The notes beneath the pieces were generated by a model, which worked only from the letters and a program-made list of their open reading frames with translations, made no database searches and was not told the DNA's origin. A stretch of DNA of 62,774 bases, filler included. It is 13 parts of 13 records of this genome, joined end to end, with 100 filler letters (N's around TTAATTAATTAA, not from the genome) between each part and the next. Parts side by side here need not be neighbours in the genome. Positions count along the whole stretch, not along the records: positions 33,164 to 41,238 come from SRR7504441_54132; 12 more parts are not named here. One strand, written 5' to 3'. Of the stretch, positions 5,803-59,677 are shown piece after piece (position 1 is the stretch's first letter; each line of letters begins with the position of its first letter). The position numbers and the translations under genes are program-made.

Positions 5803-5902
5803 NNNNNNNNNNNNNNNNNNNNNNNNNNNNNNNNNNNNNNNNNNNNTTAATTAATTAANNNNNNNNNNNNNNNNNNNNNNNNNNNNNNNNNNNNNNNNNN
5901 NN
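5803..5902. other. Artificial contig linker N44-TTAATTAATTAA-N44. Others lie at 9407-9506, 14173-14272, 18756-18855, 24238-24337, 29405-29504, 33064-33163, 41239-41338, 44758-44857, 48999-49098, 52892-52991 and 59444-59543.
   Basis: The same 100-bp spacer, with stops in all six frames, occurs 12 times, and flanking genes are cut at it. Confidence 0.99.
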
Positions 5903-9260: not shown

Positions 9261-9795
9261 ACTGAATGTTGCCGCCAGGCGCCTCTTTGACTTTTTCAAG
9301 CACACTAGAGTACTCTACAGGTAGTCTAGTCTATAGTTGTGTAATAAACTTCGAAATGCGTACAATCATAATCTTCGAAAAGTGTGTAATATCATTGGCG
9401 AAACTTNNNNNNNNNNNNNNNNNNNNNNNNNNNNNNNNNNNNNNNNNNNNTTAATTAATTAANNNNNNNNNNNNNNNNNNNNNNNNNNNNNNNNNNNNNN
9501 NNNNNNCTGGAGGAGCGCAGAAAATATAGTTAGGTAGCATTTAGTTACCTAATAAAACCCGAGTTGTACGGTCACGGGTGCGTGCGACGGGCTGTCCAAC
9601 CTAGTCGGTCAGACCGGGGAGGATACCCTCACGACATTAAAAGGTGTCTAAACGGCATTGATGAAACTGCAAGGAAGTTATAAGGAAGTTGCATTACTTT
9701 GCTCTGCAAGGCTGATCCCATGAGGTGGTAGATTACTTCAGATAAGATGAGTCAGATGACGCGAGCGAACGCTGCAACTGTCTCATTTGCAGCGC

Positions 9796-14148: not shown

Positions 14149-14355
14149 GCATCCTTGATCGGGTTCCCATGANNNNNNNNNNNNNNNNNNNNNNNNNNNN
14201 NNNNNNNNNNNNNNNNTTAATTAATTAANNNNNNNNNNNNNNNNNNNNNNNNNNNNNNNNNNNNNNNNNNNNCTCCTGTCCAACAAATCTCAATCAAACT
14301 GGCCGGCGGGCAGCGGCCAGCGGGGCAGCTGCAGCGCCGTCCGGAGGAGGCGCGG

Positions 14356-18511: not shown

Positions 18512-19132
18512 CGCAGCTGCAGCTCGACCCGTCCCGGCGGGCTTTCCGTTAGTTGCCCAGAGCCAGTCGACCGCGGCAAGGTATGTGCCCCAAGGCCCCC
18601 GGGGGGCGCGGCTCGATTGACGGGCGGGGAGCAGATGGAGGCCGAGCCTGCTGGAGAGCCGGCCTGCCCGCCCGCCCAGCCGGAGGCCGCCAGTAACGCC
18701 ACCGCCCCAAGTGCGGCCTGCCCCGCGGGCCGGGCAGAGGGGGGGGGGGGGGGGGNNNNNNNNNNNNNNNNNNNNNNNNNNNNNNNNNNNNNNNNNNNNT
18801 TAATTAATTAANNNNNNNNNNNNNNNNNNNNNNNNNNNNNNNNNNNNNNNNNNNNGACGACATTGTAGGATTGAACGACGCCACCAGAATCAATTCAGAT
18901 TCTGAGGATGACTAATCTAGCCTGTTACTTGTGGCGACTCCGACACATTGACTGTAAATTAAACATTTGACAGACATTTGGTCTCTTGTGCAAAGAGATT
19001 TCATTCGGTGTGTATAGTTTTGTAGACTATTTTATCCTGTTGGGCCAGTGCCCAGATCTATCATAAGAGCATGTCCACGAGATGTATATATCCGGTTATC
19101 CATCACGCATATCGATACGTATCCAGCGTAAG

Positions 19133-24037: not shown

Positions 24038-24363
24038 TAGGTTCTAGATCTGTAACATTAGTTAACATACTCGTACGAGTACGTACTTAAAAATCGTACG
24101 TATTTTCCAACCGCTATTGTAATTACTTAGTACTGTAATCGTGTAAGTACTGAGTTACTGTACAATGTCATGTAGCTATCCTATAGCTATCCTCAGGCTA
24201 TTGATGTCCGCCGGCGCGTCGTCAGTGGTGGTGGAGTNNNNNNNNNNNNNNNNNNNNNNNNNNNNNNNNNNNNNNNNNNNNTTAATTAATTAANNNNNNN
24301 NNNNNNNNNNNNNNNNNNNNNNNNNNNNNNNNNNNNNCCAGAGTCGGCCACGGGCGGATCTGC

Positions 24364-29404: not shown

Positions 29405-29504
29405 NNNNNNNNNNNNNNNNNNNNNNNNNNNNNNNNNNNNNNNNNNNNTTAATTAATTAANNNNNNNNNNNNNNNNNNNNNNNNNNNNNNNNNNNNNNNN
29501 NNNN

Positions 29505-33063: not shown

Positions 33064-33163
33064 NNNNNNNNNNNNNNNNNNNNNNNNNNNNNNNNNNNNN
33101 NNNNNNNTTAATTAATTAANNNNNNNNNNNNNNNNNNNNNNNNNNNNNNNNNNNNNNNNNNNN

Positions 33164-33416
33164 GGATCTAGCAGACGGGGGTGTTCTGCACTCGTTTGTG
33201 TCGGTAGAGCACCCAGAGTTCGTCAGCGAGCCCGGTGCGATCCGAGTCGACTTCCTAGTTTGTGGATTCCATCTCGAGTCTAGCGCCGGGGGCACCTTGG
33301 CCAGTCTGTTGCTGGTAGTGGATCCTAAGGGCGGGCTGCCGCGGTGGCTGGTGAACATGTGCCTCAGTAAGGTCACGAGCTACTTGTCGCGGTTAAAGCA
33401 ACACGTGGAGCGTTGA
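33164..33416 (+). CDS. C-terminal fragment of a START lipid-binding domain protein
   Basis: SVEHP....G.IR...GF.L....T......VDPKGGLPRWLVN, the typical START C-terminus. Confidence 0.8.
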
Positions 33417-33584
33417 TCAAGCCGAGGGGCGCGTAAGGTACGTGTAAGGCATGCTTGAACCGTAGCGTATACCCGGCATGGATTCCTCACTTGCCAGCTA
33501 CACCAAAAATCGATCTAAGCAAAGCCAAACGTACTGCACGTCGTACTCGTACTGCAGCTGACCGACGGATGACATCCCGATAAA

Positions 33585-34909
33585 ATGGACCGGCCACTGA
33601 GCCGTGTCCGACTGTCCAGCGATGGGGCGCGGGAGGCGCTGCAGCGGGCGGGGCTGGGAACCTGCCAGGTACGCCCCTCGGCTTGCCGAATCAGCCGGCC
33701 CAGGAGGTCTTGCTCGCCTCGAGTGTGGAGCTGCTCCGCCGGCTGCCCGGATTGGACCTGAACCAGATAGAGCAGGCCGCCGATGAGATCGCCCAGGCGG
33801 TGGCGCCCAAACCGTGCACCGTGCCTCGCCCCAATTGTGCCGGCATCGAGACTGCGCAGGCTCTTTCAATGCTCCAAACCAGCCGAGAGGGCGAGCCGGC
33901 GGCGCTCGCCACTGGAGTGCGCGAGCTGGATGATGGACTGCGGGGCGGGATTCCGGCGGCCTCGGTGACCGAGCTCACCGGGCCGGCCGGTCGGGGTAAA
34001 ACGCAGTTCTGCCTCACCCTTAGCGTGGCGGCGGTGGTGCGCTGGGCTGAGGGAGCCGTGCTCTACCTAGACACCGAGGGGTCGTTCACTGCGAGCAGGC
34101 GCGGGTCGGCCGGGCGGTCGGAGACGGGCGCGGCAGGTTGATGGAGATTGCCCGTGCCCGCTGCCCTGGGATGGACGATCCAACAATCGAGGCGCTGATT
34201 CAGCGAGTGCATGTTGCACGCGTTTCAGAGCTGGTCGGGCTGTCAGAAAGGTGGTGGAGAGCTTGCAATGTGCCGAGTGTCTGGGGCAGGCTGGAGCAGA
34301 TCGAGAACGAGGTGATCGAGCACAATATCAAGCTAGTGGTGGTCGACTCAATTGCGAGCACAGCCCGCAAGCAGAACTCTTCTCTGATGGCCCGACAAGA
34401 CACGTGCGTCGGCTGGCCGGCCGCTTCTGCTGACCGCCGGGCAGGCTGGTACGGCAGGCGGCGAGGCTCAAGTGCCAGCCCGGCCTGCCGACGGTTGAGC
34501 CCACCTGCAGGTGGGTCGCTGAATCCTTTGGGATCCCAGTCCTGGTTACCAACCAAGTCACGACTCGAATATCTCACGAAGAGCCGAGTCTGGGGCCCCA
34601 ACGCGCACGGCTTTACAGCAAGGACAGGTAAGCTGGATGGGACTACCGTCCCAGAGCTGCGAGGCCCCGAGTCGGTCCCTGCTTTGGGTAACACTTGGGC
34701 GCATTGTGTGACGACTCGGCTGCTACTCGAGCCAGATAGGTATTGACCGCTCAGGAGCTGGCCGGCCTGAGGTGGAGGACAGCACCATCAAGGTGGCCAA
34801 GTCGCCGACCGCAGCCGTACTGTCTGTTGGATATAGCATAACAGCTGCTGGGTTTGTCCAGCAAACCTGCAGTGATGCTCATGCTGATAACCCCATGAAT
34901 AGCTTTTAG
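33585..34909 (+). CDS. RAD51B: RAD51 paralogue, RAD51B-like (multi-exon)
   Basis: LD..LRGGIP...TELTGPAGRGKTQFC (Walker A), LYLDTEGSF, LVVVDSIAS (Walker B), IPVLVTNQV, PALGNTWAHCVTTRL and VAKSP. Confidence 0.85.
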
Positions 34910-35411
34910 TCCCTTTTACTCGTAGCCTCATGATCAGTTTAGAATGTGAGCACTAGTCATGGGCTGGTGTGACCTAGCTATAGTCTGCATACCGTACCAA
35001 TATAATCATGATTCGAACGTTCCTCTTGAATTTGATTACTTCAACTGGTTTAACAATGTAAAGTACTTACTACGTACGAGTACGCATTAGTGACGCATTC
35101 GTCGTGCACTGACGTGCAGATGTTAAATACATGTACATGTTCTACGTTCAAGTTCCTGGTTCTCAGATGTTTGGAGGACTCGGAGCCCTCTTGACTCCCA
35201 AAGAAGCGTCTGAGTCGTTCAGGAGCGTGACTAATTTTAAGATTCTGTGCCGTGTGTTGTTAGCCGCCTCATTTTGTTGCACTATAAGAGAACTGTCAGC
35301 CCTCATGTGGTGCTACTCTTGTGATACGTCCATCAACATTGCTCTATGTTTCTAATAGTGTAGTAGTGGTAGTAGTACGCGTGTGCAAGAACTCAGAGCC
35401 CTTGCAACACC

Positions 35412-35810
35412 TCAAGCAGTTGTGCTTTGAGCCACAGCTGCAACAGCTTGTGGCATATTGGCTGCCAGAGAGCATACCCGCTTGCTCTGTCTCACCACCC
35501 AGGCGCTGTAGGCCTCCTTGCGGGCCTCCTCCGTGCTCTCCCAGCTTTGCGCCTGCTCTTGCAAGACCGCCCCAGTCACAGGTATTGCGCGGCTGTTCAT
35601 CAAAAGGCAGTCCCACGTCGTCCCAAAGTCCAAAGCGAGCGGTTCCGGCTCCTTCGGCTTGCGCTTGGCAAATCCGTCCCAGCCGATCACGGACGGAATC
35701 GTCGCGAGTTTCGGCCAGCTCTTGGATGCCTCCGATGGCTCCTGGGAGCTTGTCCGTGGGATGAATGTGGCTTCGGGATCCCAGTCAGTGCTGCTCATTT
35801 GCTTGATCAT
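35412..35810 (-). CDS. Short hypothetical protein
   Basis: ORF tail MIKQMSSTDWDP... lies outside the opposite-strand gene; start is uncertain. Confidence 0.3.
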   Translation of the reverse strand: MIKQMSSTDWDPEATFIPRTSSQEPSEASKSWPKLATIPSVIGWDGFAKRKPKEPEPLALDFGTTWDCLLMNSRAIPVTGAVLQEQAQSWESTEEARKEAYSAWVVRQSKRVCSLAANMPQAVAAVAQSTTA

Positions 35811-35990
35811 CTCGGGCACGGGCGACGGCTGTGGTACCGGAACATGCTGCGCATCAGGGCACCGGATCTCCAGCGCGTGCTTCCGTTTGGGCCGGTCAGC
35901 CGTGGCGCCGGCAGTAGGCTCAGGCTGGGGCCGCAGAGAGAGGACCTTTCGCCCAGCAACCGTTTTTGGGAGTCGATACACTGCCCCGCC

Positions 35991-36751
35991 ATGTCTCCCA
36001 CCAAGTCCGTGATGAAGATCGCCGCCGTCCTGCTGATCGCGTTGGCCGGCATGGCCGCCGCGCAGCACGGTCACTTCGGGGACCACGCCAGCCAGGCGGA
36101 GTACGAGGCGAAGGCACAGAAGATCCAGATGGAGGCCGCAGAGGTGATGGAGATGATCGCAAAGGCCACGGCGGGCGCCCAGGAGAAGATGGCGATGCTG
36201 GAGAAGGCCATGCCGATGAGCCGCAACCCACTGACCAACATGGCGAGTATTGTCAACGAGAGATGCATATGACCGAGAACAAGGACGCTGAGGTGAAGGA
36301 GATGATTGAAGGGTGGGAAAAGGATATGATGGCAACGATGAAGCAGAACAAGACTTTCACGGCGATGACCGAAGACGCCTCTGCAGAAAATCAGGCGCAG
36401 TTTGCGGAACTCATCGAAGGAGCCAAAATGAAAGTGGAAGTGCTTAAGAAGAAGATCATGATGAAAACGATGGAATCGGAAGCAATCGGAGAGTACTACG
36501 CCAAGGTTCAAGCTATGTGCTGGACAGAGAACAAGAAAGGCTTCCAACAGGTTGCGCTTCAATACACTGGCCCAATCGCACTCAAGCCTGCGGCCAAGGA
36601 GGTGAAGGCGTGGTACAAGGCGCGACAGTGCTGCGCCAGCAACACGGAGGAGTGCATGCTCAAGATGGGCGTCATGGGACCCGGCAAGTACGAGTTCGAC
36701 TCGCAATCCGAGGAGGAGAAGGAGATGGCCAAGAAGAAGGCTCCGTTTTAG
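35991..36751 (+). CDS. Secreted Met/Glu/Lys-rich helical protein with a frame break near 36260
   Basis: Signal peptide MKIAAVLLIALAGMAAA. The first frame stops at 36272; the second (MHMTENKDAEVKEM...KKAPF) has the same composition and codon bias. Confidence 0.6.
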
Positions 36752-36961
36752 ATCGGGTACCTTCGCGTTATACAAGAGAACGCCAATCAAGCAAGAGAAG
36801 ACACACATCAAGCAAGGAGACAAATTTTGCACGTCAATATGAGTACAATTCATGCACGTGATTTTAACGTCAAAACCAAATGTGACCCAATCAGATGCGA
36901 TATGAGCACTCACAATTGATAACGCGTGAGATCTGTAAAGATTGAAATGCATCTGTCACTT

Positions 36962-38741
36962 TTATATCAAGATCGTACTGCCGTAATCTTGTCTCACCAT
37001 GGTTTGCACCTTATCGATTAGTTGGACAGCCCAACCTCGCAATCGTGGGACTTGCGTGCACTCGCGCTTGACACAACGCAACAGCAGCCCGGTGTCTTCA
37101 AGGTTACGCCGCTTCAACCAATCAGTCACCACCTCGACTAGGTGCCGCTGCGCCTCCTCACCGGTTGGCTCTAGCGGCCCCTCGGTCGTTCTGATCCAGG
37201 TTGCAAGCTCCTCCCGCCACAACCGGAACCGACCCGGTGAGCTGCTCGTTTCCGCCGGCGCCTCGGCGGGGGCTGGCAGCGGCTGTGGCTGCGGGGGGCT
37301 GGTGGGCTGTGGCTGCAGCCGTTGTCGCGAGGAGCGGCGGGCGGGCTGGCGCTGTGCCGCCTCGGCCAGCTTCATCTCTGCAACTATCTGCAGCGGCAGA
37401 GCGGCCCGCATGCCTGGCGAGAGCTGGGACAGCCGCATCGGCTCTGTGGGCTCGTCTGGTTGGGCGGGTGGGCTTCTGGGCCGCTTGGCTGGCTTGTAGT
37501 GCTGTTCAAGCTCTGACCGGATGGCCAGCGGAAGAGAGTCCAGCACTGCGCTGTCCACCTGCCCCGTTCTGACCCGCCAGCCCGCTGCCCAGATGCCTGC
37601 GACAGAGAGTCCGGGAACAGATCCAGCGTCGGGTCCGGCTCGGACCGGGCCGCCGGCTCCTGAGCCTCCGGACGGGTGGGCACTTGCCCGATCAGCTCAC
37701 TCGCCAGCTGCTGCAGCTCGGTACCCACCTGCACCAGCTCACGCTGCCTGGGGCCGGCACGGTGCCTGAGCACGGGCTGCGATCAACTCTGCGCAGCTGG
37801 TGAGCCCGAGCCTGGACACCTCCAACTTGGCTCTCCACCCGAGAGGAAGAAGCGCTGCCATGGCTCAGCCAACGTTGGATGCAAGCAGCCGGACCTATCG
37901 GCAGCCGCCCGGACTCCTCCGGGCTCAGCATGGCGTGGCCCGGGGCAGACGGCACCGACTGGGCAGCCAGCCAGGCGAGTAGCTCGGTGCGCCCGTACCC
38001 GAGCCGGGCTGGGCAGCCGGAGATGCCCTCGAGCTGGCTGAGCAGTCCAGCAGGGTCGATCCCTGGGCCACTGAAGTGCGCCTGCTGCTCCGACGCCCAA
38101 CGGACCCTGGCAGCCCGCGACTGGAGCAGTTGGTTGACCCCGTCGAGCACCTCCAGCCGGGCTCGGCCGCTCGGGTGCAGCGTTTGCAGCCCGTCCAGAA
38201 TCAGGCATGAGGCTGCTGGGCCGGAAGACTTGAGCTGACGCTGGCCATGAGGCACCGGTGGCGGCACCGAGAAGTCCAGGGCCGGGAGAAGCCGGCCCTC
38301 CGCGATCGACTGGGTGACCCACTCCGGCCGGACGAACGGGATGTGCGCGCCTTTGAACTGCCGGGCGGCCTTGGACGCCGCCAGGGCGGTGCCCACGCAG
38401 TGGGTCACTTTGGTCTTGGAGAAGTACTGCTCGCACCGGCCGCCGTGTTCTCCGAACATGCGCTGGAGTACAGTTGGCGGCGGCTGGGTGAATCCGTTGA
38501 TCCAGATGGTCAGACCAGCAAAGATGCTGCTCCGGCTGGGAGGCCCGTCGAAACGCTGGCGCAGCAGCCGTTCTTTGCGCTCATGGTAGCTCTTGTGCCC
38601 GCCCCAGCCGCCCCCGCCGAAGCCGTGCTCGCCCCGCTCCTTCGAGGCCTCGAACTGACGCCGGAGCTCGTCGGGCTCTTCCATGAGTTTCCGCTCGTCG
38701 GCCAGCGGCGGGCCTGCCTCCTTCGGCGAGCCCGCCTGCAT
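36962..38741 (-). CDS. REV1: Short REV1-like protein (BRCT, degenerate polymerase remnant, two UBM-like motifs, Rev1 C-terminal domain), about 552 aa
   Basis: REV1-type N-terminus SYHERKERLLRQRF..SIFAGLTIWINGFTQP..HGGRCEQYFSKTKVTH..VRPEWVTQSI.EGRLLP. UBM-like SQ|VDSAVLDSLPLAIRSEL. C-terminus WIRTT..P...NLED...VQTMVRQDYGSTIL. Introns of 40, 43 and 38 nt restore one frame. Confidence 0.8.
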
Positions 38742-38780
38742 ACTGTACTGTAATAACGGACACGGAGAAATGTGTTGACG

Positions 38781-39287
38781 ATGTCCTCCTGGACCTGGCT
38801 TTGCGAGCACCGTCGCCCGACCGTAGCGGTCACGGCTGAGGGCGAACACCTGCACCACGGGGAGTCGGCGACGGCGCTGCCAATCGACGGGGCGGTGGCA
38901 CGGCAGGTAGCGGCGCTGAATGCCCGAGAGCAGCCGGAACCGCTGGAAAACGCCGAAGCGGCCAGCGACCTGGCTGCGATCGAAGTCCGCCGGCTATCTT
39001 GCGAGCTGCGGACCGAGGTCGCGCTAGCCGAGAGGCCTGCCTGGTTCTCTGAGCCACGGAAGGAGCAGCAGCGCCAAAAGAGGGTCGCGCGCGAGCTGCA
39101 TTCAATCAAACGGGAGTTACGGCAGCTGGCAGTCAACTCGCTGTTGATGTCCCCGCTGCAAGGAGCTCTCGGTGCTGTGGGGACGAGTCCAGTGTATGCA
39201 TGGTCAACCGAGACAAGCATCGCCTGGCTGAGCAGTCAAGTGATCGTAGTTCCGACAGCGCTGATTCCTCGCCGGTCTCAAATTTAA
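38781..39287 (+). CDS. Hypothetical protein
   Basis: 169-codon ORF divergent from the REV1-like gene and followed by AT-rich DNA. Confidence 0.35.
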   Translation: MSSWTWLCEHRRPTVAVTAEGEHLHHGESATALPIDGAVARQVAALNAREQPEPLENAEAASDLAAIEVRRLSCELRTEVALAERPAWFSEPRKEQQRQKRVARELHSIKRELRQLAVNSLLMSPLQGALGAVGTSPVYAWSTETSIAWLSSQVIVVPTALIPRRSQI

Positions 39288-39664
39288 CCGGAAGTCTGTC
39301 GCGCTTTGCTCCATTCCGATTAATTAAGCACGTATAGATGTATGAGACATTCCGACTAATTACTGTATAGCGCCTAGAACTGTGCTACTTCTATACATGT
39401 ATGCTATTCCGGCATAGACAAAGCAGATGTTTGTTAAATCATGATAAAATCATGAGGTTAAATGCACAGTCAGGGGGGTCACGCCCCTCCCACGTAGATC
39501 TGCGTCATGATCAGAGCTAGCGATTCTCAGTCTAGCTCATTACGCATTGTTGGAACGCAAGGTCTACGAGTAATCAGTTTCTTGAGGTTGTAAAATTCCA
39601 CATGCCACGGATCAGGTTGTTATCTATAATAGTTAGTAATTCAATATTTACTTGTATTTATTCA

Positions 39665-41071
39665 TCAACTATTGGACTGCAACCGCTGTTTAGGATGCAC
39701 GTGGTACACCATGGCGTATCCAAGCATGCTAAACATCAGCACTATCATTATCGCTAGCACAGTCCAAACTCGCCAAGTAGAACCCGAACCATGTCCACCC
39801 ATCAGATCTTTACAGTAGTCATCTTGAAGCTCTTTCAGTTTAGCTTTGAGCAGTTGTAATTCACGCTTAGCCTTCTGGAGCTCATCGTCCGAACCATGAA
39901 GTGGCGCACTAGGCTTGGTCAGAGTGTCGCCGATCTTAGTTGAATTATCCCCACCTACCGCGGGTACCTCCTCTCGCCTGATACCAACATCCGCTTCTGG
40001 CTGTTTTGGCCCGGGGTGCACAGCATCTGCCGGCTCTGCTGTTCTTACAGTGTCGTCTTCTACCTCAGAAACCCTGCATTGCTCGGCATCCTCCGTGTCA
40101 GAATTCGCAATCCTCTCAGTCAGCAGCTTGAGCTCGCCCCTTGCCGCACCCTGCTCAGCTGCAAAGATCTGTCAGCCGCCTTCACTAGCAGCATCGCACC
40201 AGCAGGCAGAAGCTCAATTGCATCCTCTAAGATAGCCCGAGCTCGCAGGAGCTCATTCTGCCCTGTATAGCAGAATGCCAACGAGCGCATGCACCTACTC
40301 TCCCCGTTTAGGCCTCTGAGAACGGACAGTGCATACCGGCCTCGAAGTATCCCGTCAAGTTTCAAGGAAAGCGCAGCTTCAAAGCTCTTCGCAGCGGCTG
40401 AAGGTTGCATCAGCTTGTGAAGTCTCACGCTTCCAGCACAGTGCAAAGCCACTGCAGCATCCGCTGGCTCCAAAGTTCAGAATCGCAGTTGTCATCACAT
40501 GTACGTACCGCTGTGATGGTCCGCGTTCCTAAACAACTTCGCAGCAGCCTCAAGCATACTTGCAACCTGAAGACATTAATATCAGCCGCCGCTCTCTCCA
40601 CAAGGCACCTGGGCAAAATCTTCGGTGCACGAAGCTAGCAGCACTAGCGTGTGCGCTTCAAGACTGGGTTGCTGATTCTGTTCCGAGACTGCCGCCAGCC
40701 CCAATGCAGCAGCACACCTGCTGATAGACTGTGGCTGCTGCCTCTAACTCAGGCACTGCAGCCGCCTTCTGGGCCTGCTTCATCAACAGCACTGCACACC
40801 CAACCCGCCCAGCCGCTTGGACTAATTGATTCTGGCTAGCTGTCGCCGACTTTAGGTGCGACCTGACGAACTACTCGACAACTCACAAGGTCATACATGA
40901 CCTAGCAGACGAATCTCTATCCAGCCTGAGGAGCAACGACCCGATCTCCAGCCGCTCGAGCTCTGCCACCGGATCGGATTGTGCAAACAACCGGGATCTA
41001 CCGCCAGGCGCCGCTCTTTCCTGCTCGAGCGCTGCGCCGGTTACCGCCTCCACTGCCTCTGCAGCAGACAT
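39665..41071 (-). CDS. TPR-like helical protein with a coiled coil and a C-terminal transmembrane anchor (multi-exon)
   Basis: ALHCAGSVRL....AAAKSFEAALSL and SLAFCYTGQNELLRARAILEDAIEL are TPR-like; tail TM segment VWTVLAIMIVLMFSMLGYAMVY. Confidence 0.5.
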
Positions 41072-41338
41072 TTTCAAGCCGATTGCGCTATGTAGTGCGT
41101 ACCGTTAGTGTGACACACACTAGCCCCTGGCTCCGAGGCTGTCCTGCACCGGTTTAGCCCTCGCAACGCCACTAGCCTCGCAGCGTTGCTCTCGGTGAGC
41201 CCAAGAGCCGCTTCAAACTTCTCTCCAGCCGACTCTAANNNNNNNNNNNNNNNNNNNNNNNNNNNNNNNNNNNNNNNNNNNNTTAATTAATTAANNNNNN
41301 NNNNNNNNNNNNNNNNNNNNNNNNNNNNNNNNNNNNNN

Positions 41339-44757: not shown

Positions 44758-44857
44758 NNNNNNNNNNNNNNNNNNNNNNNNNNNNNNNNNNNNNNNNNNN
44801 NTTAATTAATTAANNNNNNNNNNNNNNNNNNNNNNNNNNNNNNNNNNNNNNNNNNNN

Positions 44858-46351: not shown

Positions 46352-48606
46352 ATGCAAGGCACCACACGCGGCAAGAAGAAGACCAGTTCGGCGCCCGGCT
46401 CCGGCAGGAAGGCCGGCTCGGCGCCTGGGGGTGGACGGGGCAACCTCTCGGTGGGCGGCGGCGACCGGCCGGCCACGCGAGTCACCTCGGGTACGCCACT
46501 AGGATGCCCCTCCCGCACCCGCTCCGCCCCACACAGCCGCCCCTGCGGAGCCCGCTCCCAAACCCAAGGCTAGCCGCCCCTCCGAAAGTGGCCTGTGCCA
46601 GCCCGCCGCGCTGCGACACGCTGGCCGGCTGACCGGAAGCTGGCTCGGTAGGTGTGGGGCGCGGTCGCGTGAAGAAGCGCCCGCCGTCCTCCGGGCCAAT
46701 CTATCAGGTCAAGCCCCGCTGCACCGCGCACGGGCCGAGGCAGCTCGGGCAGGCTCAGCTGAAAGACAGTGCCCCGGCAGACCGGCCAAACCTGATGATT
46801 CAAAAGCTGCGCTTCTGCATGAAGTGGTGCGGCTCGACCCACAGCCGGCCGCCCAACAGTGCCTGGGGCAGTTACGACTTCAGTGACGACAGTGTCGAGG
46901 AGAAGTCTGCCAGAGATGCTAAGAAAGTTAAACAAATGATACTAATGGAGATCTGCGACTACATCAACGGTGAGCGCCCACGGCCCGGCTCGGCTGGCGC
47001 GGTCGGTCTGTCACTCGACAGTCGGCCGTGGCGCTCGCACTGCCGCAACTGGGCTAGCTGTCGTGTCTGATGCTCGTGAGCGATCCCGGGTCTGAAACTC
47101 GCGGCTGGAGTGGCGAAAGGGCCGGCTGTGCGGCTGACTAACTGGTGGGTGGCTGCAGCCAAGCCGCAGATCCTGACTCAGGAGGCCGTGGTGTCTCATC
47201 TGATTGAGATGGTGACCGCCCTCACACCGAGGCCAGCCTCGAGCTATCCACTGCAGGTCTCTTGCAACCTGTTCAGCGGGCAGCGGGCCTTCGTGGCCTC
47301 GGAGCCGTCCGAGGAGGAGGAGCCGCTGCTGGATCCTGCGTACGTCCACACACAGGCATTTGCTCCCCGCGGTAGCGCTGTGATGATCGGGGGTGGCAGC
47401 TCGTGTATGAGATTTTATTGAGGTTTGTGATGAACGGGGACACTGAGAGCGGCATGATGCGGAGGTATGTCAATCTCGAATTCATCGACAAGCTGGTGCG
47501 CCGCCCTGTGCCTGCTGTGGCGATGGATGGGCAGCTGTCCGCATTCAACACGGAGGACCCTCGGGAGAGGGAGTACCTCAAGACAATCCTGCACCGGATA
47601 TACGGCCGGTTCATGACCTTCAGGCTCCAAATCCGCAAGGCGATCAACAACATATTCTACGAATTCACTTACCAAGACGACAAGCATGCGGGGATCGGTA
47701 TCGACCCCAGACCGCCTCCGCCCCCGTGACAGCCGCGCAGGTGAGCTGCTGGAGATCCTCGGATCTATCATCAACGGATTCGCCTTACCGTTGAAGGACG
47801 AGCACAAGTCATTCCTGGCCAAGTATCTGCTGCCACTGTACAAGCCGCGAGGGATGCTCAATTACCACCCTCAACTGTGCTACTGCATCGTGCAGTTCGT
47901 GGAGAAAGACCCGAGTCTATCTGCTGTCATCATCCAAAGCCTGCTCCGGTGCGCCGCCGACTGCTGCCACCGGCGAGCTCCTGGCAGGTGGTGGCCACAT
48001 AGCAACAGCCAGAAGGAGGTGGCTTTCTTAAACGAGGTCGAAGAGGTGTTCTGGTTGGTCGGTAACCTGGCAAGAGCCTGGGCGCAGGTGGTGGAGAGTA
48101 CACACAACCCGGAGCAGAATCTGCTCGATGTCGTCAAGCTCATCTTCAAGCGAATAGCCAAATGCATTCTCTGCAATAATTTCCAGGTCTTGACTTGCCG
48201 GGCCTGGCTCACCTCTCGATTAGGTAGCGGAGAGAGCTCTCTTCCTGTGGCAAAGCCCACAGTTCCTCGAGTTCTCCAGGTAGCGCGGCCGGCCAGCCAT
48301 TGGCCAATCGGTGTGGGCAGGAGCAATCTGAACGCCTGCCTGCCGATTCTGTTCCCGGCACTCTGCCCTGAGACGGAGCATTGGAACCCGAGTGTACAGC
48401 AGCTGTCAGCAGGGGTGCTCGAATTCTTCCAACAGGTGGATCCAGCCAAGCTCGAGGCTGTCCGCGAGCAGAACGAGAAGGATAAGGTCGAGTCCAAAGC
48501 TGCTGCCCAACGGCGGAAAGAGCAGTGGCAGAAGATAGAGCAGATGGCCCAGATGGCAACGGCAACAAAAGGATTGGAGCAAGTCAAGATAAACGACGAA
48601 ACCTGA
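46352..48606 (+). CDS. Protein phosphatase 2A regulatory subunit B' (B56), many introns
   Basis: EEEEPLLDPA, LVYEILLRF, FNTEDPREREYLKTILHRIYGRF, GELLEILGSIINGFALPLKDEHK, YHPQLCYCIVQFVEKDP, FQVAERALFLW and HWN. Confidence 0.95.
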
Positions 48607-49098
48607 GCACAGTAGCGCCCTTGTATACAATACAGCCGCAACTGAGACTGCTAGTAGTATGACGATTGTGTCAATGGTTGGTAGACGGTTGGCCAATCAA
48701 GTCCACCTCTTGTCGTACTTATCAGGCCACAAAGCCTTTAACAATCCATGCCATTCGTTATTGATCATTGATCAGTTTTTTCTGTTCATTAGATGGAATT
48801 ATTAAACCCAGGCCTTTCAATTACGATACACGTGTACCTATAATTGTCGCTCATGCATCAATTCGCCCCGAATTCCCGATTAACTTTGGCCCGTCCCGAC
48901 GAGCTCCTCGAACTGGACCTGCATGTTGGGCGCCTGCCCGACCTGGGTAAACAGGAGGGACGGAGGCAAGGCCGCGCACCGGGTAGGAGACGCACTGGNN
49001 NNNNNNNNNNNNNNNNNNNNNNNNNNNNNNNNNNNNNNNNNNTTAATTAATTAANNNNNNNNNNNNNNNNNNNNNNNNNNNNNNNNNNNNNNNNNNNN

Positions 49099-52891: not shown

Positions 52892-53171
52892 NNNNNNNNN
52901 NNNNNNNNNNNNNNNNNNNNNNNNNNNNNNNNNNNTTAATTAATTAANNNNNNNNNNNNNNNNNNNNNNNNNNNNNNNNNNNNNNNNNNNNCTTGCACCG
53001 ATAGCGCTCCCGGCCGTGGGGGCAGGGCATGGCGGGAAATAAATCGAAAATCGGCCGGAAAAGATCTCGCTCGCCTGCTTCTCAAGAGGCCGCCGCATAC
53101 CTCCAGTGCGCGCGCTGCTGGTCTCTCGGGCTGACCAGTGGCGGGGCAGAGTCTTCCCATCACCTGTGCTA

Positions 53172-54273: not shown

Positions 54274-57200
54274 CTAGTCAAAGAAGTAGGGTGAGTCACA
54301 CACCACCTGCCACACCGCCCGTCAAGCGGGCCCCGCGGCCCGAGCTGCCTTGAGGTCCAGATCGCCCCGCTTGGGCAGCTGCGGGAAGCTGACATCCGGA
54401 TGCCTCAATCGAAATAGCTCCTTGAGGTCCTCCAGCAGAGGCTCAGAGTGCAACTTAACAAATTGCTCCCGCAAAGCCTGCAACCCGAGCTCAGCCGAGA
54501 GTCCGGCCCGGGACTGGCCTTGTTCATCGCTGGAATGTCGCAGCCGTGAGTCCAGTACGAGTCATGCACCGCAGCAAAGTCCTGTCGGCCAGTCAGCCCC
54601 CGAGAAGCCTGAGGCCGTCACCAGCCCTTGCTTGTCGCATTCGAGAGCCGTAAGCATCATGTGAGTCGAGTCCAACGAGTGCACGAAATTGGGCGGGAAT
54701 GCAGTCTTCTGGCGGGCCTTGAGCACCTGGGAAATGGGTCGGTCGGCCGATCGAGATGCCAGTTACTGGCTGATCATCCACGCTGGACATCACCAGAGTC
54801 TGCATTCTAGTCTTGATTGCGCGCTTCCTCTCCTTTCGGTACGGCTGCACCACGGGCAGCCCTAGAGGCGTGACCCACGCCACGTCCTGCCCCGTTGCCG
54901 CAATCCGCTGCGCACACTCGGCAAGCCAGCACTGCACTCGGATCACGGGCTGTGGGTGGAACTAGTGCACCTTAATCGAGTCTGCGCCTACAAACTTCTG
55001 TCCGATCGATTTGAGCGTCTTGCGGGCCAGATAAACTGACGCGGTGTATTGCAAGTCTTCTTCAAACCCTTTCTCGCGAAGCCTGTTCTCGATCTGCTGC
55101 CTGCAAGCCGCCAGATCAGCCCCTGGCACGATCTGCGTGTCGGCACCGCGCCCCTACAAACGTGACTCCATACACGGAGGTCATGACTGTCTGCTTGACC
55201 GTCTTCCGTTCTACATATGGCGCCACCTGCCCCAGGATCACGGCGCCCTGGCCGCTGAGTTGCCTTGGCGGCCAGCTCGGCCATTTCCGTCCGTCCGACC
55301 ACCTGTTGTGCCTCCGCATACACCTCGTCTTTAACCAAATTCATAACCCCCGAGTATACGTCCTGCGGCTGTTCAGCAGGCACCAAATCCACCTGACCCG
55401 CCCTGAACAGACAGCCCACGCCCGCGCGCACCTGCGCCGCTCCTTCCATGTCCCTCCCCAGCGCAGCATAGTGCTGAAGCCCGTTACAAGAGCCATCTTG
55501 ATGCACTGGCAGCCGAGAAGCGTACTCCTCCGGCCCGTCCGGATGTCGGATCGCCGCGGCCAGCTCCCTCGCGGTGAGCAGGCACTGCCAGGGCTCGTCA
55601 GCCTCGGTCCACCATTGCTTGCCCTCGAGCGGGTTATCTGCCGAGTCCAGAATCTGTGACATCGAGTCTTCCACAAAATCAATCCGCCCACTGCCAGCCG
55701 TCAGCCAGAGCGTTCCCTGCGCTGCACCTGAACGTGCGTTTGTCCTCGCCGAACAGGTTGGCCAGGTGGATCTTGAGCCAATACAGCCCGGTCTCGCCGA
55801 GCGGCTTGGCGTTGTCAAACGTGAGCAGGCTGCGGCAGTAGTCGGCCGACAGGTGGTTGAAGTGCGGAGGGATCGGGTAAGCGCGGCCCCGGAAGTCGAC
55901 GTTGTGAGGAAAGTAAATCGGCCTCCCCATCACACTTTCGGCGCACTCCATCTGCCCCAGCCCTGAGCGGCCGGCTGCGATTTTCAAGGTCGCACTTTGA
56001 GCCTAAAGTCGCATCGGAGAGAGTTCAAGTTGGCGTTGTCTCTCTTGATCCGCGCCCGATTCCTGTTGTACTGGACCTTCTCTTCTATTGGCATCTCGAC
56101 CCCCTTCTCCAGCTTGGCTGGAGTGGGCCTGTCCCGATCCGCCGCCGACAACGGCACCCCAGCCAGCCCGCCGCCCCGATCCCAGACCTGATGTTAATGT
56201 TAGGCTCAATGCATTGAGCCGTGCACCTGCTTCAAGACCGACATCTGGACTGGATCCACACGCCACGGGACAGACGACAGAGCGTTCAGCGCTGTGTACA
56301 CCTCGCTCAGGTCGGCGCTCCGTAGAGCCTCAGTCTGGGCGTAAACGCCCTTGGTGCGCATCAAGGTCGACGGCAGCTGTAGAAACCTGACTCCACGCTC
56401 AGCGCTCGTTGTTCGTGTATCGAGTCACCCTCCGGTTCTGGAACTGGTCCACGGCTGCGGCTTGCACAGCATGGGCGGGGACTGCGGGTGTAACTGGGCC
56501 ATCACCTGATCCCAACCGTCGGCCCAGACTTTTATAACGATAATAAATGGCACCTCATGGTCTTGTTCTATCTTCGCCCGCACCCTCGTATCTAGCTTTA
56601 TAATCCCAAAGTGCTTGTATGTCCGCCCCTCGTCTAGATTTTCTGTCAAGTGTTGAAACGCCTGACCGACCCAGTCAGGCCGGCAGGCTGCGGCATGGTA
56701 TACATTGCATGTGGCGCCCTCCTTGGTCTGAAAAGTTGCATTGTCTACTACAAGCTGTATGAGCGCCCCCCCGACCTGCGCAGCCTGAGCCAATACCGGG
56801 CGGCTGCCATGCCTTAACAGAGACACGCTGGCCCCAGTCGGTGTCATTGAGCGCCTTCTTGACCATTTGCTTGAGCATATCCGGCCTGCGAGTGGATCAA
56901 TCCATACCTAGGATCGAGCCACCTGCTCCGACCCCTCGACAGAATCTCCTCTTGAAATAAATAATTCTTCCCAAGATCCTTCTGCCTAGCTTCCAGATCC
57001 TGCTTGAGCCGCTTATAATTCGACTCAGCCTGTCCCCCGTCAGCCGCCACCCGCATATCAGTCGCAGCACCTGGACCTCCTCCCCGATCTTATTGGCCAA
57101 CATCGTATACTTGACAGAGCCATCGGTCGCATTCACGTTCTTAGTGACCATCGACATCACCCCGTTCAGCGCAATTACCGCCAGTTCCTCCTTCTTCAGT

Positions 57201-59349: not shown

Positions 59350-59677
59350 GGCTGTCCTGCGATGCGACGCCGAGGGCGCAACCAGTTGCAAGAGGGAGAT
59401 CGAGTCGAAAGCGAGTCCGTTACTTTTTGACAGCGATGCCGCGNNNNNNNNNNNNNNNNNNNNNNNNNNNNNNNNNNNNNNNNNNNNTTAATTAATTAAN
59501 NNNNNNNNNNNNNNNNNNNNNNNNNNNNNNNNNNNNNNNNNNNTGGTCTAAGATCGAAATACTAAAGTAAGTTTTAAAAGGTAGTGAAACAGTCCCTATT
59601 CGAGTCTCTCTTGCGCATGCCCAGCTTGTACACGTAATATCGGGATCGGACAACGGTTACCACGACTTGTACGCCTC

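Follow-up and report, generated by a model that had tools for sequence, protein, structure and literature searches.

The stretch of DNA analysed here, hereafter the window, is 62.8 kb long and consists of 13 short contigs (~3.5-8 kb each) chained via 12 spacers that all read N44-TTAATTAATTAA-N44. One of these contigs (33164..41238, 8 kb) carries on its minus strand a gene resembling REV1, whose whole coding region occupies 36962..38741, with the ATG at 38741 and the stop codon at 36962-36964. The best spliced model has four exons and 554 amino acids (aa), close to the 552 aa or so given by a first-pass annotation of the same DNA, which had described the product as a natural scaffold-only pseudo-polymerase. 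The predicted protein contains an M1-like helix, a REV1-type BRCT, two UBM-like motifs and the four-helix C-terminal domain (CTD) of REV1, while its Y-family polymerase core, roughly 450 aa in length elsewhere, is reduced to about 110 aa. The evidence as a whole tilts slightly towards a non-catalytic, scaffold-only REV1 that works as an adaptor in translesion synthesis.

Two long open frames on the minus strand meet near 37700: frame B (38993..37692, first ATG at 38741) and frame A (37696..36962, ending with the stop). The frames were called by guanine-plus-cytosine (GC) content by codon position together with a codon log-odds table trained on the other genes of the window, the REV1-like gene being left out. 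Judged in this way, the coding signal of frame B extends from 38741 to about 37900 and ends there, that of frame A is weak between 37854 and about 37790, a third frame is strongly coding at about 37776-37606 (17-19 bits per 30 codons), and from about 37568 through the stop the signal returns to frame A. Three short introns of 40, 40 or 43, and 35 nucleotides (nt) at the three frame changes give an open frame; the earlier claim of an open frame would thus hold once these introns are modelled out, and the junction LPI|ALLPLG fits the three-intron model. A dynamic programme over the codon log-odds was run at four penalty settings, and introns at 37894..37855, 37787..37748 and 37603..37569 were picked at three of them.

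Exon 1 (37895..38741, frame B) encodes the N-terminus, the M1-like helix, the BRCT, a linker and a vestige of the palm, and its codon log-odds sum to +119 bits over 282 codons. Intron 1 (37855..37894, 40 nt, GTCCGG...GGCTGAGCCATGGCAG) leads from frame B to frame A, and both its length and its CTGAG-N-GCAG tail match the introns of a phage-type RNA polymerase gene on another contig. Exon 2 (37788..37854, frame A) has a weakly positive codon score and holds a possible vestige of the first helix-hairpin-helix of the thumb (LLPLGWRAKLEVSRLGLTSCAE). Intron 2 (37748..37787, 40 nt) leads from frame A to the third frame and has uncertain sites; the alternative of 43 nt at 37777-37819 gives a protein of 553 aa, and the alternative sites are within about 4 bits of one another. 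The coding signal of the region peaks in exon 3 (37604..37747, third frame, QRELVQVGTELQQLASELIGQVPTRPEAQEP...DLFPDS) with 25.6 bits over 47 codons, although this exon has no counterpart in REV1 and gave no match to REV1 profiles with hhalign (E 0.45). The sites of intron 3 (37569..37603, 35 nt), which returns the reading to frame A, are likewise uncertain, several alternatives of 32-53 nt scoring within 4 bits. Exon 4 (36962..37568, frame A) encodes the two UBM-like motifs, a Pro-rich linker and the CTD up to the stop.

The codon score is positive in all four exons, and that of a frame-B read-through of intron 1 is negative. The three-intron models reach ~196 bits as compared to 144-166 bits for three models with long introns (30-52 bits worse), and these were rejected: one 184-nt intron at 37742..37559 (531 aa, 143.6 bits), introns of 40 and 174 nt (521 aa, 165.6 bits) and introns of 40 and 60 nt (559 aa, 153.4 bits). 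An additional in-frame candidate intron of 39 nt (37955..37917, GTGCCG...CTGAGCCCGGAG), which would give ~541 aa, was neither adopted nor excluded. As a control, the programme was retrained without the RNA polymerase gene and then run on that gene, where it placed introns at the correct junctions.

Introns this small are not peculiar to the REV1-like gene. The RNA polymerase gene (54397-55807, minus strand) is broken into pieces of 60-420 nt, with eight consecutive Pfam RNA_pol pieces in changing frames, and gaps of 19-43 nt separate them at all seven junctions, each of which offers a frame-keeping GT/GC-AG candidate intron. From their sequences the likeliest introns of this gene measure 37-46 nt, some with a GC donor, and often there is a CTGA(C/T/G) motif 10-16 nt ahead of the GCAG/CCAG acceptor. 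A 40-nt gap of the same kind is found in a PP2A-B56 gene (47696-47737, plus strand). Since both genes show such gaps, tiny introns are normal for this host, and they seem to be a genome-wide trait.

With regard to the N-terminal part of the protein, a REV1-type BRCT is encoded at 38268..38534, as identified by Pfam, by a sequence search of the PDB and by AlphaFold2. On the frame-B open reading frame (ORF), Pfam returned BRCT (E 4.4e-8) and BRCT_2 (E 5.3e-7). Five of the six distinct sequences found in the PDB were REV1 or its BRCT (best human 2ebw, E 5.8e-16), the sixth being TopBP1 (E 0.069), and AlphaFold2 modelled the domain with a predicted local distance difference test (pLDDT) score of 95-98. 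A hidden Markov model (HMM) of the REV1 family with 916 positions, built from 35 full-length matches, was matched at positions 17-162 with E 1.4e-36 by the frame-B piece and E 4e-38 by the spliced model. Directly upstream, 38550..38603 encodes an M1-equivalent helix (HKSYHERKERLLRQRF) which aligns to the family consensus GW..GGYM.AK..KL..QF and forms helix 47-64 in the AlphaFold2 model of exon 1 (pLDDT about 78-87); a conserved REV1 M1 motif is described in PMC13250573. The arrangement found, a single N-terminal BRCT after an M1 helix, is that of the REV1 family, and the intact REV1-type BRCT of the first-pass annotation is confirmed.

The C-terminal part, too, resembles REV1. The frame-A piece matched positions 704-909 of the family HMM (E 1.7e-12), a span that includes two UBM motifs of the helix-LP-helix type and the CTD, and exon 4 in the spliced model matched positions 679-909 (E 3e-15). 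UBM-like motif 1 (37502..37561, QVDSAVLDSLPLAIRSELEQ) falls on UBM columns of the HMM and is modelled as a helix-turn-helix (pLDDT about 92); in tblastn searches it was matched by the UBM regions of four of eight REV1 queries (E 0.11-2.3). UBM-like motif 2 (37361..37432, LSQLSPGMRAALPLQIVAEMKLAE) corresponds to the second UBM of the HMM, with helices 51-56 and 59-73 at pLDDT 83-92. The CTD is encoded at 36968..37210: all 10 matches of frame A in a phmmer search of the PDB were REV1 CTDs (best 4gk0_E, E 2e-4), and a local CTD HMM gave E 2.4e-9 with the spliced model. The AlphaFold2 model of the last exon, made from a 49-row alignment, has a mean pLDDT of 79.8, with 83-92 for the UBM-like units and 84-95 for the four C-terminal helices, and the best 12 Foldseek matches in the PDB were all REV1 CTDs (TM(target) 0.61-0.82, root mean square deviation 1.5-4.3 A). 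The four-helix CTD, the polymerase-interaction domain of the REV1 family, is intact as first annotated, and so are two motifs that may be UBMs, the Pfam models UBM and REV1_C themselves giving no match at E <= 1 in the frame-A ORF.

A direct repeat of 18 nt (83% identity) was observed at 37524-37541 and 37595-37612, where one copy encodes DSLPLA of UBM-like motif 1 (frame A) and the other, read in the third frame, encodes DSLSQA where exon 3 ends (...DPTLDLFPDSLSQ). The second copy may be chance, or what is left of an additional UBM-like unit that has degenerated.

Of the core between these modules, the spliced model covers the family HMM only at positions 426-464 and leaves 163-425 and 465-678 without a match, ~61 residues standing in place of the former interval and ~53 in place of the latter. 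The covered part corresponds to the C-terminal half of the palm (37917..38153), in which A-R-L-E, at the possible position of SCDE, and a long helix are followed by GCPARLGYGRTELLAWLAA. Several searches agree that the palm motif GISGCPARLGYGRTELLAWLAA noticed initially is real. BLASTP aligned residues 424-483 of a tapeworm REV1 (P0003) collinearly to residues 197-261 of our protein (E 1e-6), and tblastn with the same query against the whole window found the palm at 38105-37917 (E 6e-4). A sub-HMM of the C-terminal palm scored 7.5 bits at 38036-37959, a score reached by none of 400 dinucleotide shuffles, and hhalign against 16 canonical REV1s aligned 31 residues of the motif (E 0.0028). In the AlphaFold2 model the vestige forms one confident long helix (195-221) and is otherwise of low confidence, with no palm-like sheet and with the motif at pLDDT below 50.

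The strand with the first carboxylate is missing from this remnant. The first-pass annotation had placed VRWASEQQAHF at S-C-D-E-A, an assignment that does not hold: BLASTP puts the Glu of SCDE (P0003 residues 421-424) at E197 of A-R-L-E-V, ~17 residues upstream, so that under this mapping the position of the SCDE Asp is a Leu, the Glu is kept, and VRWASEQQ falls in the variable segment after the motif. It should be underlined that this mapping comes solely from extending a pairwise alignment: upstream of GC..A..G.G neither hmmalign nor hhalign aligned anything, and global MAFFT alignments instead put A-R-L opposite S-R-L of the N-digit SRLHH. Neither mapping leaves an acidic pair in the remnant. 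D570/E571 of human REV1 are the residues mutated to abolish catalysis, according to PMC2588525.

The remainder of the core was sought in every frame of the contig and throughout the window with tblastn, HMMs and Pfam, and no match was obtained for the N-digit, the DMDCFF strand, the fingers, the remaining thumb or the little finger; the earlier statement that the DxDxFF motif I and the little finger are lacking is thereby borne out. When eight full REV1 proteins were compared with the 62.8 kb by tblastn, all eight found the BRCT and none gave a finger, N-palm or little-finger match, and the score of the little-finger sub-HMM was at chance level (reached by 197 of 400 shuffles). Pfam found no IMS palm-finger domain (PF00817), which carries the three catalytic carboxylates (Asp in DMDCFF, Asp-Glu in SCDE), in any frame and neither of the DNA-holding domains IMS_HHH and IMS_C, the thumb being represented by one marginal hairpin, and its scans of the separate gene pieces returned nothing relevant; the protein thus lacks what characterises a Y-family enzyme. 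The Arg of the N-digit, which in REV1 pairs with the incoming dCTP, and the G-loop are REV1-specific elements; no significant HMM match to the N-digit was found in the spliced model, and the G-loop lies within the missing little finger. Two likenesses seen by eye were discarded: exon 3 (PVLRHRAGPRQRELV) as the thumb segment LQKEFGPKTGEKLY, which neither the thumb HMM nor hhalign supported, and LQQLASEL as a little-finger helix, which was at chance level. A tblastn match to the linker of another REV1 (P0007) on a different contig (15800-16084, E 0.015) was taken as low complexity.

The marginal hairpin is LPIALLPLG, previously read as the start of the helix-hairpin-helix thumb. In frame A (37840-37778) the thumb hairpin sub-HMM scored 2.4 bits, which 3 of 400 shuffles reached, and hhalign matched columns 516-537 (E 0.027) in collinear order, 28 columns past the palm motif as compared to about 25 residues in the protein. 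In the spliced model the score fell to -0.6 bits (E 0.098), and this assignment is weakly supported.

The slightly better thumb match of frame A read straight through intron 2 counts in favour of a recently dead REV1, a decaying pseudogene whose frame changes are indels and whose BRCT, UBM-like motifs and CTD have merely not yet degraded. The three frame changes all fall inside 37895-37568, the only degenerate part of the gene, and no clear branch-type motif is seen in introns 2 and 3, whose sites are ambiguous. Intron 1, on the other hand, has the length and the CTGAG...GCAG tail typical of the host and sits exactly at the first frame change. Codon periodicity is strong in every exon, including the non-homologous exon 3, about 250 downstream codons are open with the hallmarks of UBM and CTD intact, and the large deletions are in frame. 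We consider a decaying pseudogene quite unlikely.

Sequencing runs other than that of the window provide partial coverage of the locus. Contigs from two DNA runs (X1 and X2) match 37088-37534, 37822-37972, 38007-38157 and 38441-38591, and contigs from two oligo-dT RNA libraries of different studies match 38073-38223, 38291-38441 and 37273-37461. These contigs are 31-192 nt long with 0-3 differences each, and they cover parts of exons 1 and 4 as well as the passage from exon 1 through intron 1 into exon 2. No run contig was found over 37535-37821, 37973-38006 or 38224-38290, and none contained a joint, so that they weigh neither for nor against a collapse or the splice sites. Two 18-nt matches of an X2 contig, at 38252-38269 and 37252-37269, were taken as spurious. 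Three variants are listed inside the gene, two of them synonymous third-position changes in the exon with the palm vestige and one a change from Thr to Ala in the CTD.

Another reading is a collapsed or chimeric assembly of a true gene with a full core. The window is made up of short, metagenome-type contigs joined by artificial spacers, and the run contigs leave the three intervals named above bare. Against a collapse, both deletions are in frame inside continuously coding sequence, and no long direct repeats flank them, the longest being 16-18 nt at 83-88% identity. Moreover, the independent runs reproduce 37822-37972 and 38007-38223 with no loose ends there, and what is left of the core has diverged, which a mere cut would not explain: its motif is degenerate, and in the BLASTP alignment Leu occupies the position of the catalytic Asp. 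An assembly artefact is in our judgement very improbable.

Relatives were sought with HMMER among 1.84 billion representative proteins, which yielded 981 matches at E <= 1e-3; of these, 187 reached E <= 1e-10, and there was no match at E <= 1e-30. In all of the 150 matches listed (of 981) the best-scoring stretch lay in the M1-BRCT region, and 98 of these 150 possess the polymerase core. A word-indexed search of proteins of similar, greater and smaller length, and searches of JGI metagenome contigs, viral contigs and the ESM Atlas, gave no relatives. The best match was the tapeworm REV1 mentioned above, which has 924 aa (IMS 322-483, thumb 533-585, IMS_C 587-698, REV1_C 834-914). Like the human, yeast and tapeworm enzymes, our protein has its modules in the order M1 helix, single BRCT, core (a remnant here), two UBMs (UBM-like here) and four-helix CTD; its BRCT is 35-47% identical to those of many REV1s, and its modelled CTD superposes on the human and mouse REV1 CTDs at 1.5-1.9 A. 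Compared with the tapeworm protein, however, only the equivalent of about residues 421-497 of the core survives, possibly plus one hairpin. The DMDCFF strand, the fingers and the little finger are missing, as is probably the N-digit, and BLASTP puts Leu at the position of the SCDE Asp.

One of the 150 matches listed combines M1 and BRCT, a UBM-like motif and REV1_C with the absence of a core. This predicted protein of 396 aa (P0053) comes from an ENA metagenome assembly, where it is found on two contigs (longest 3.5 kb), and it shares with ours the REV1-type M1 helix and BRCT (hhalign E 6.7e-33), a UBM-like motif (LDYDVLLELPANLQ), the lack of a polymerase core and a REV1_C recognised by the local HMM and by Pfam (E 6.8e-5, below the Pfam cut-off). 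The two proteins are not close (35% identity in the BRCT, E 0.009 for the CTD), and P0053 has no palm vestige. Its sequence hints that loss of the REV1 core recurs. Other matches deviate in different ways. A sturgeon protein (P0062) lacks the N-palm, which is probably a gap in the gene model. A 1109-aa protein of Rhizina undulata (P0132) has BRCT, a chromodomain in place of the core and REV1_C, and two proteins from Logan assemblies (P0148/P0171) have BRCT and a mid-protein chromodomain, Pfam finding no IMS in any of the three; these could be another kind of polymerase-less REV1 or transposon-disrupted gene models.

Such sporadic polymerase-less predictions also bear on the view that the gene is a paralogue beside a canonical REV1, acting as a competitor, regulator or specialised adaptor, which would be compatible with the adaptor role favoured here. 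There is nothing direct in its favour, and the analysis covered 62.8 kb of the assembly. No Y-family match was obtained elsewhere in the window, which is a tiny sample, and REV1 is not known to be other than single-copy in familiar organisms, which counts against a second copy. We regard a paralogue as unlikely.

In REV1, the M1 helix and BRCT bind PCNA and DNA ends and regulate Pol zeta, the UBMs bind ubiquitinated PCNA, and the CTD is the docking site both for REV7/Pol zeta and for other polymerases through their RIR motifs. The modules retained at the locus would be exactly those through which REV1 organises translesion synthesis. The locus would thus be a genuine gene with four exons whose product, a REV1 homologue of ~554 aa, lost its catalytic machinery through two internal deletions. 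One of them, between the BRCT linker and the second half of the palm, would have removed the N-digit, the fingers and the first palm strand together with its Asp; the other would begin after the first thumb hairpin and would have taken the rest of the thumb and the entire little finger. Because the remnant of ~110 aa was not modelled as a palm by AlphaFold2, the protein would neither bind a primer-template nor transfer dCMP, and this half-size REV1 can probably act only as an adaptor. Provided that splicing occurs as modelled and that the product is translated, we infer from its domains that it would bind the partners named above and serve as an adaptor in polymerase switching. With respect to the scaffold-only pseudo-polymerase proposed initially, the retained scaffold, the gutted core and a frame that is open after splicing stand, and one of its four motif assignments, SCDEA, was misplaced.

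A number of points weigh against a functional adaptor. The three frame changes lie within 330 nt, exactly at the degenerate part, and a young pseudogene with indels would look alike. In the RNA polymerase control the boundaries were inexact and two introns were merged; for this reason the exact splice sites of the REV1-like gene are not fixed, and it is the frame path that we trust. The Pfam models of UBM and REV1_C were silent, and among the 1.84 billion representatives no relative is closer than 38-47% identity in the BRCT. No run contig spans a deletion boundary or a spliced junction, the contigs from the RNA libraries may be carried-over DNA, and three variants prove nothing. Finally, with an assembly of ~3.5-8 kb contigs a canonical REV1 may exist elsewhere. 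Taken together, we find the first-pass observation largely right and the gene model sound in outline, resting on one short contig. The more specific proposal, in which a lineage of marine picoeukaryotes with tiny introns has no other REV1 and selection has maintained this one purely as an adaptor ever since its core was lost, strikes us as rather doubtful.

Whether selection on REV1 acts on the dCMP transferase or on the scaffold has been under debate for two decades, with engineered mutants as the evidence. If the present reading is true, evolution itself would speak for the scaffold-first view, through a REV1 that naturally has no core but keeps M1/BRCT, UBMs and CTD intact. The protein would then also offer a minimal adaptor of natural origin for tests with PCNA, REV7 and RIR partners, and the mutation signature of the host would be changed in that no C is inserted opposite abasic sites. 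Were it also the sole REV1 of its lineage and under selection as an adaptor, it would, together with the unrelated P0053, mean that eukaryotes repeatedly dropped REV1 catalysis and kept the scaffold, a natural experiment in which the conserved role of REV1 is recruitment and not dCMP insertion.

That scaffold functions can work without catalysis is known from laboratory mutants of REV1 (human D570A/E571A and domain deletions): bypass in DT40 cells suffers from loss of the C-terminus but not from D570A/E571A (PMC2588525), and catalytically dead REV1 keeps regulatory functions (PMC13250573). These mutants differ from the gene described here in being engineered and in mostly keeping a folded core, whereas the core of the latter would have been removed by natural deletions. 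In flies, according to PMC11309488, the transferase activity of REV1 matters when Pol zeta is missing, and natural loss of the core may for that reason carry a cost. The whole REV1 gene has been lost in Glomeromycotina and Microsporidia, as stated in bioRxiv 10.1101/2025.09.02.673565; these lineages likewise show that REV1 catalysis can be dispensed with, but in them the scaffold is lost as well, in contrast to its selective retention here. A full-text literature search found no description of a natural polymerase-less REV1, although subscription journals and supplementary files, which were outside the search, may hold one.

The spacers that join the contigs of the window are located at 5803-5902, 9407-9506, 14173-14272, 18756-18855, 24238-24337, 29405-29504, 33064-33163, 41239-41338, 44758-44857, 48999-49098, 52892-52991 and 59444-59543. 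As the window is a chain of contigs and not a chromosome, gene order across the spacers carries no meaning. The remaining contigs carry ordinary eukaryotic genes, including PP2A-B56, the phage-type RNA polymerase, PARP and VWA, and scanning the window with Rfam and for tRNAs gave no match. Small shares of the stretch were found in many marine metagenome and metatranscriptome runs, and the host is a GC-rich (about 60%) marine eukaryote.

On its own contig the REV1-like gene is flanked by two plus-strand ORFs without a Pfam family. The ORF at 38781-39284 shows codon usage of the coding type (42.6 bits over 168 codons). Lying on the opposite strand to the REV1-like gene and beginning ~40 nt from its ATG, it forms a very compact head-to-head pair with it. 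On the other side, a Met/Lys/Glu-rich ORF with a strong coding score (35900-36751, MTENKDAEVKEMIEGWEKDMM...) is convergent with the REV1-like gene and ends 211 nt from its stop. Since one flanking ORF starts ~40 nt upstream of the ATG and the other ends at 36751, the REV1-like gene is complete and boxed in, with no room nearby for hidden exons. Upstream of the ORF at 35900-36751, and in another frame, a further ORF starts with a signal-peptide-like sequence (MKIAAVLLIALAGMAAA), which suggests that the two may be one secreted protein split by a small intron.

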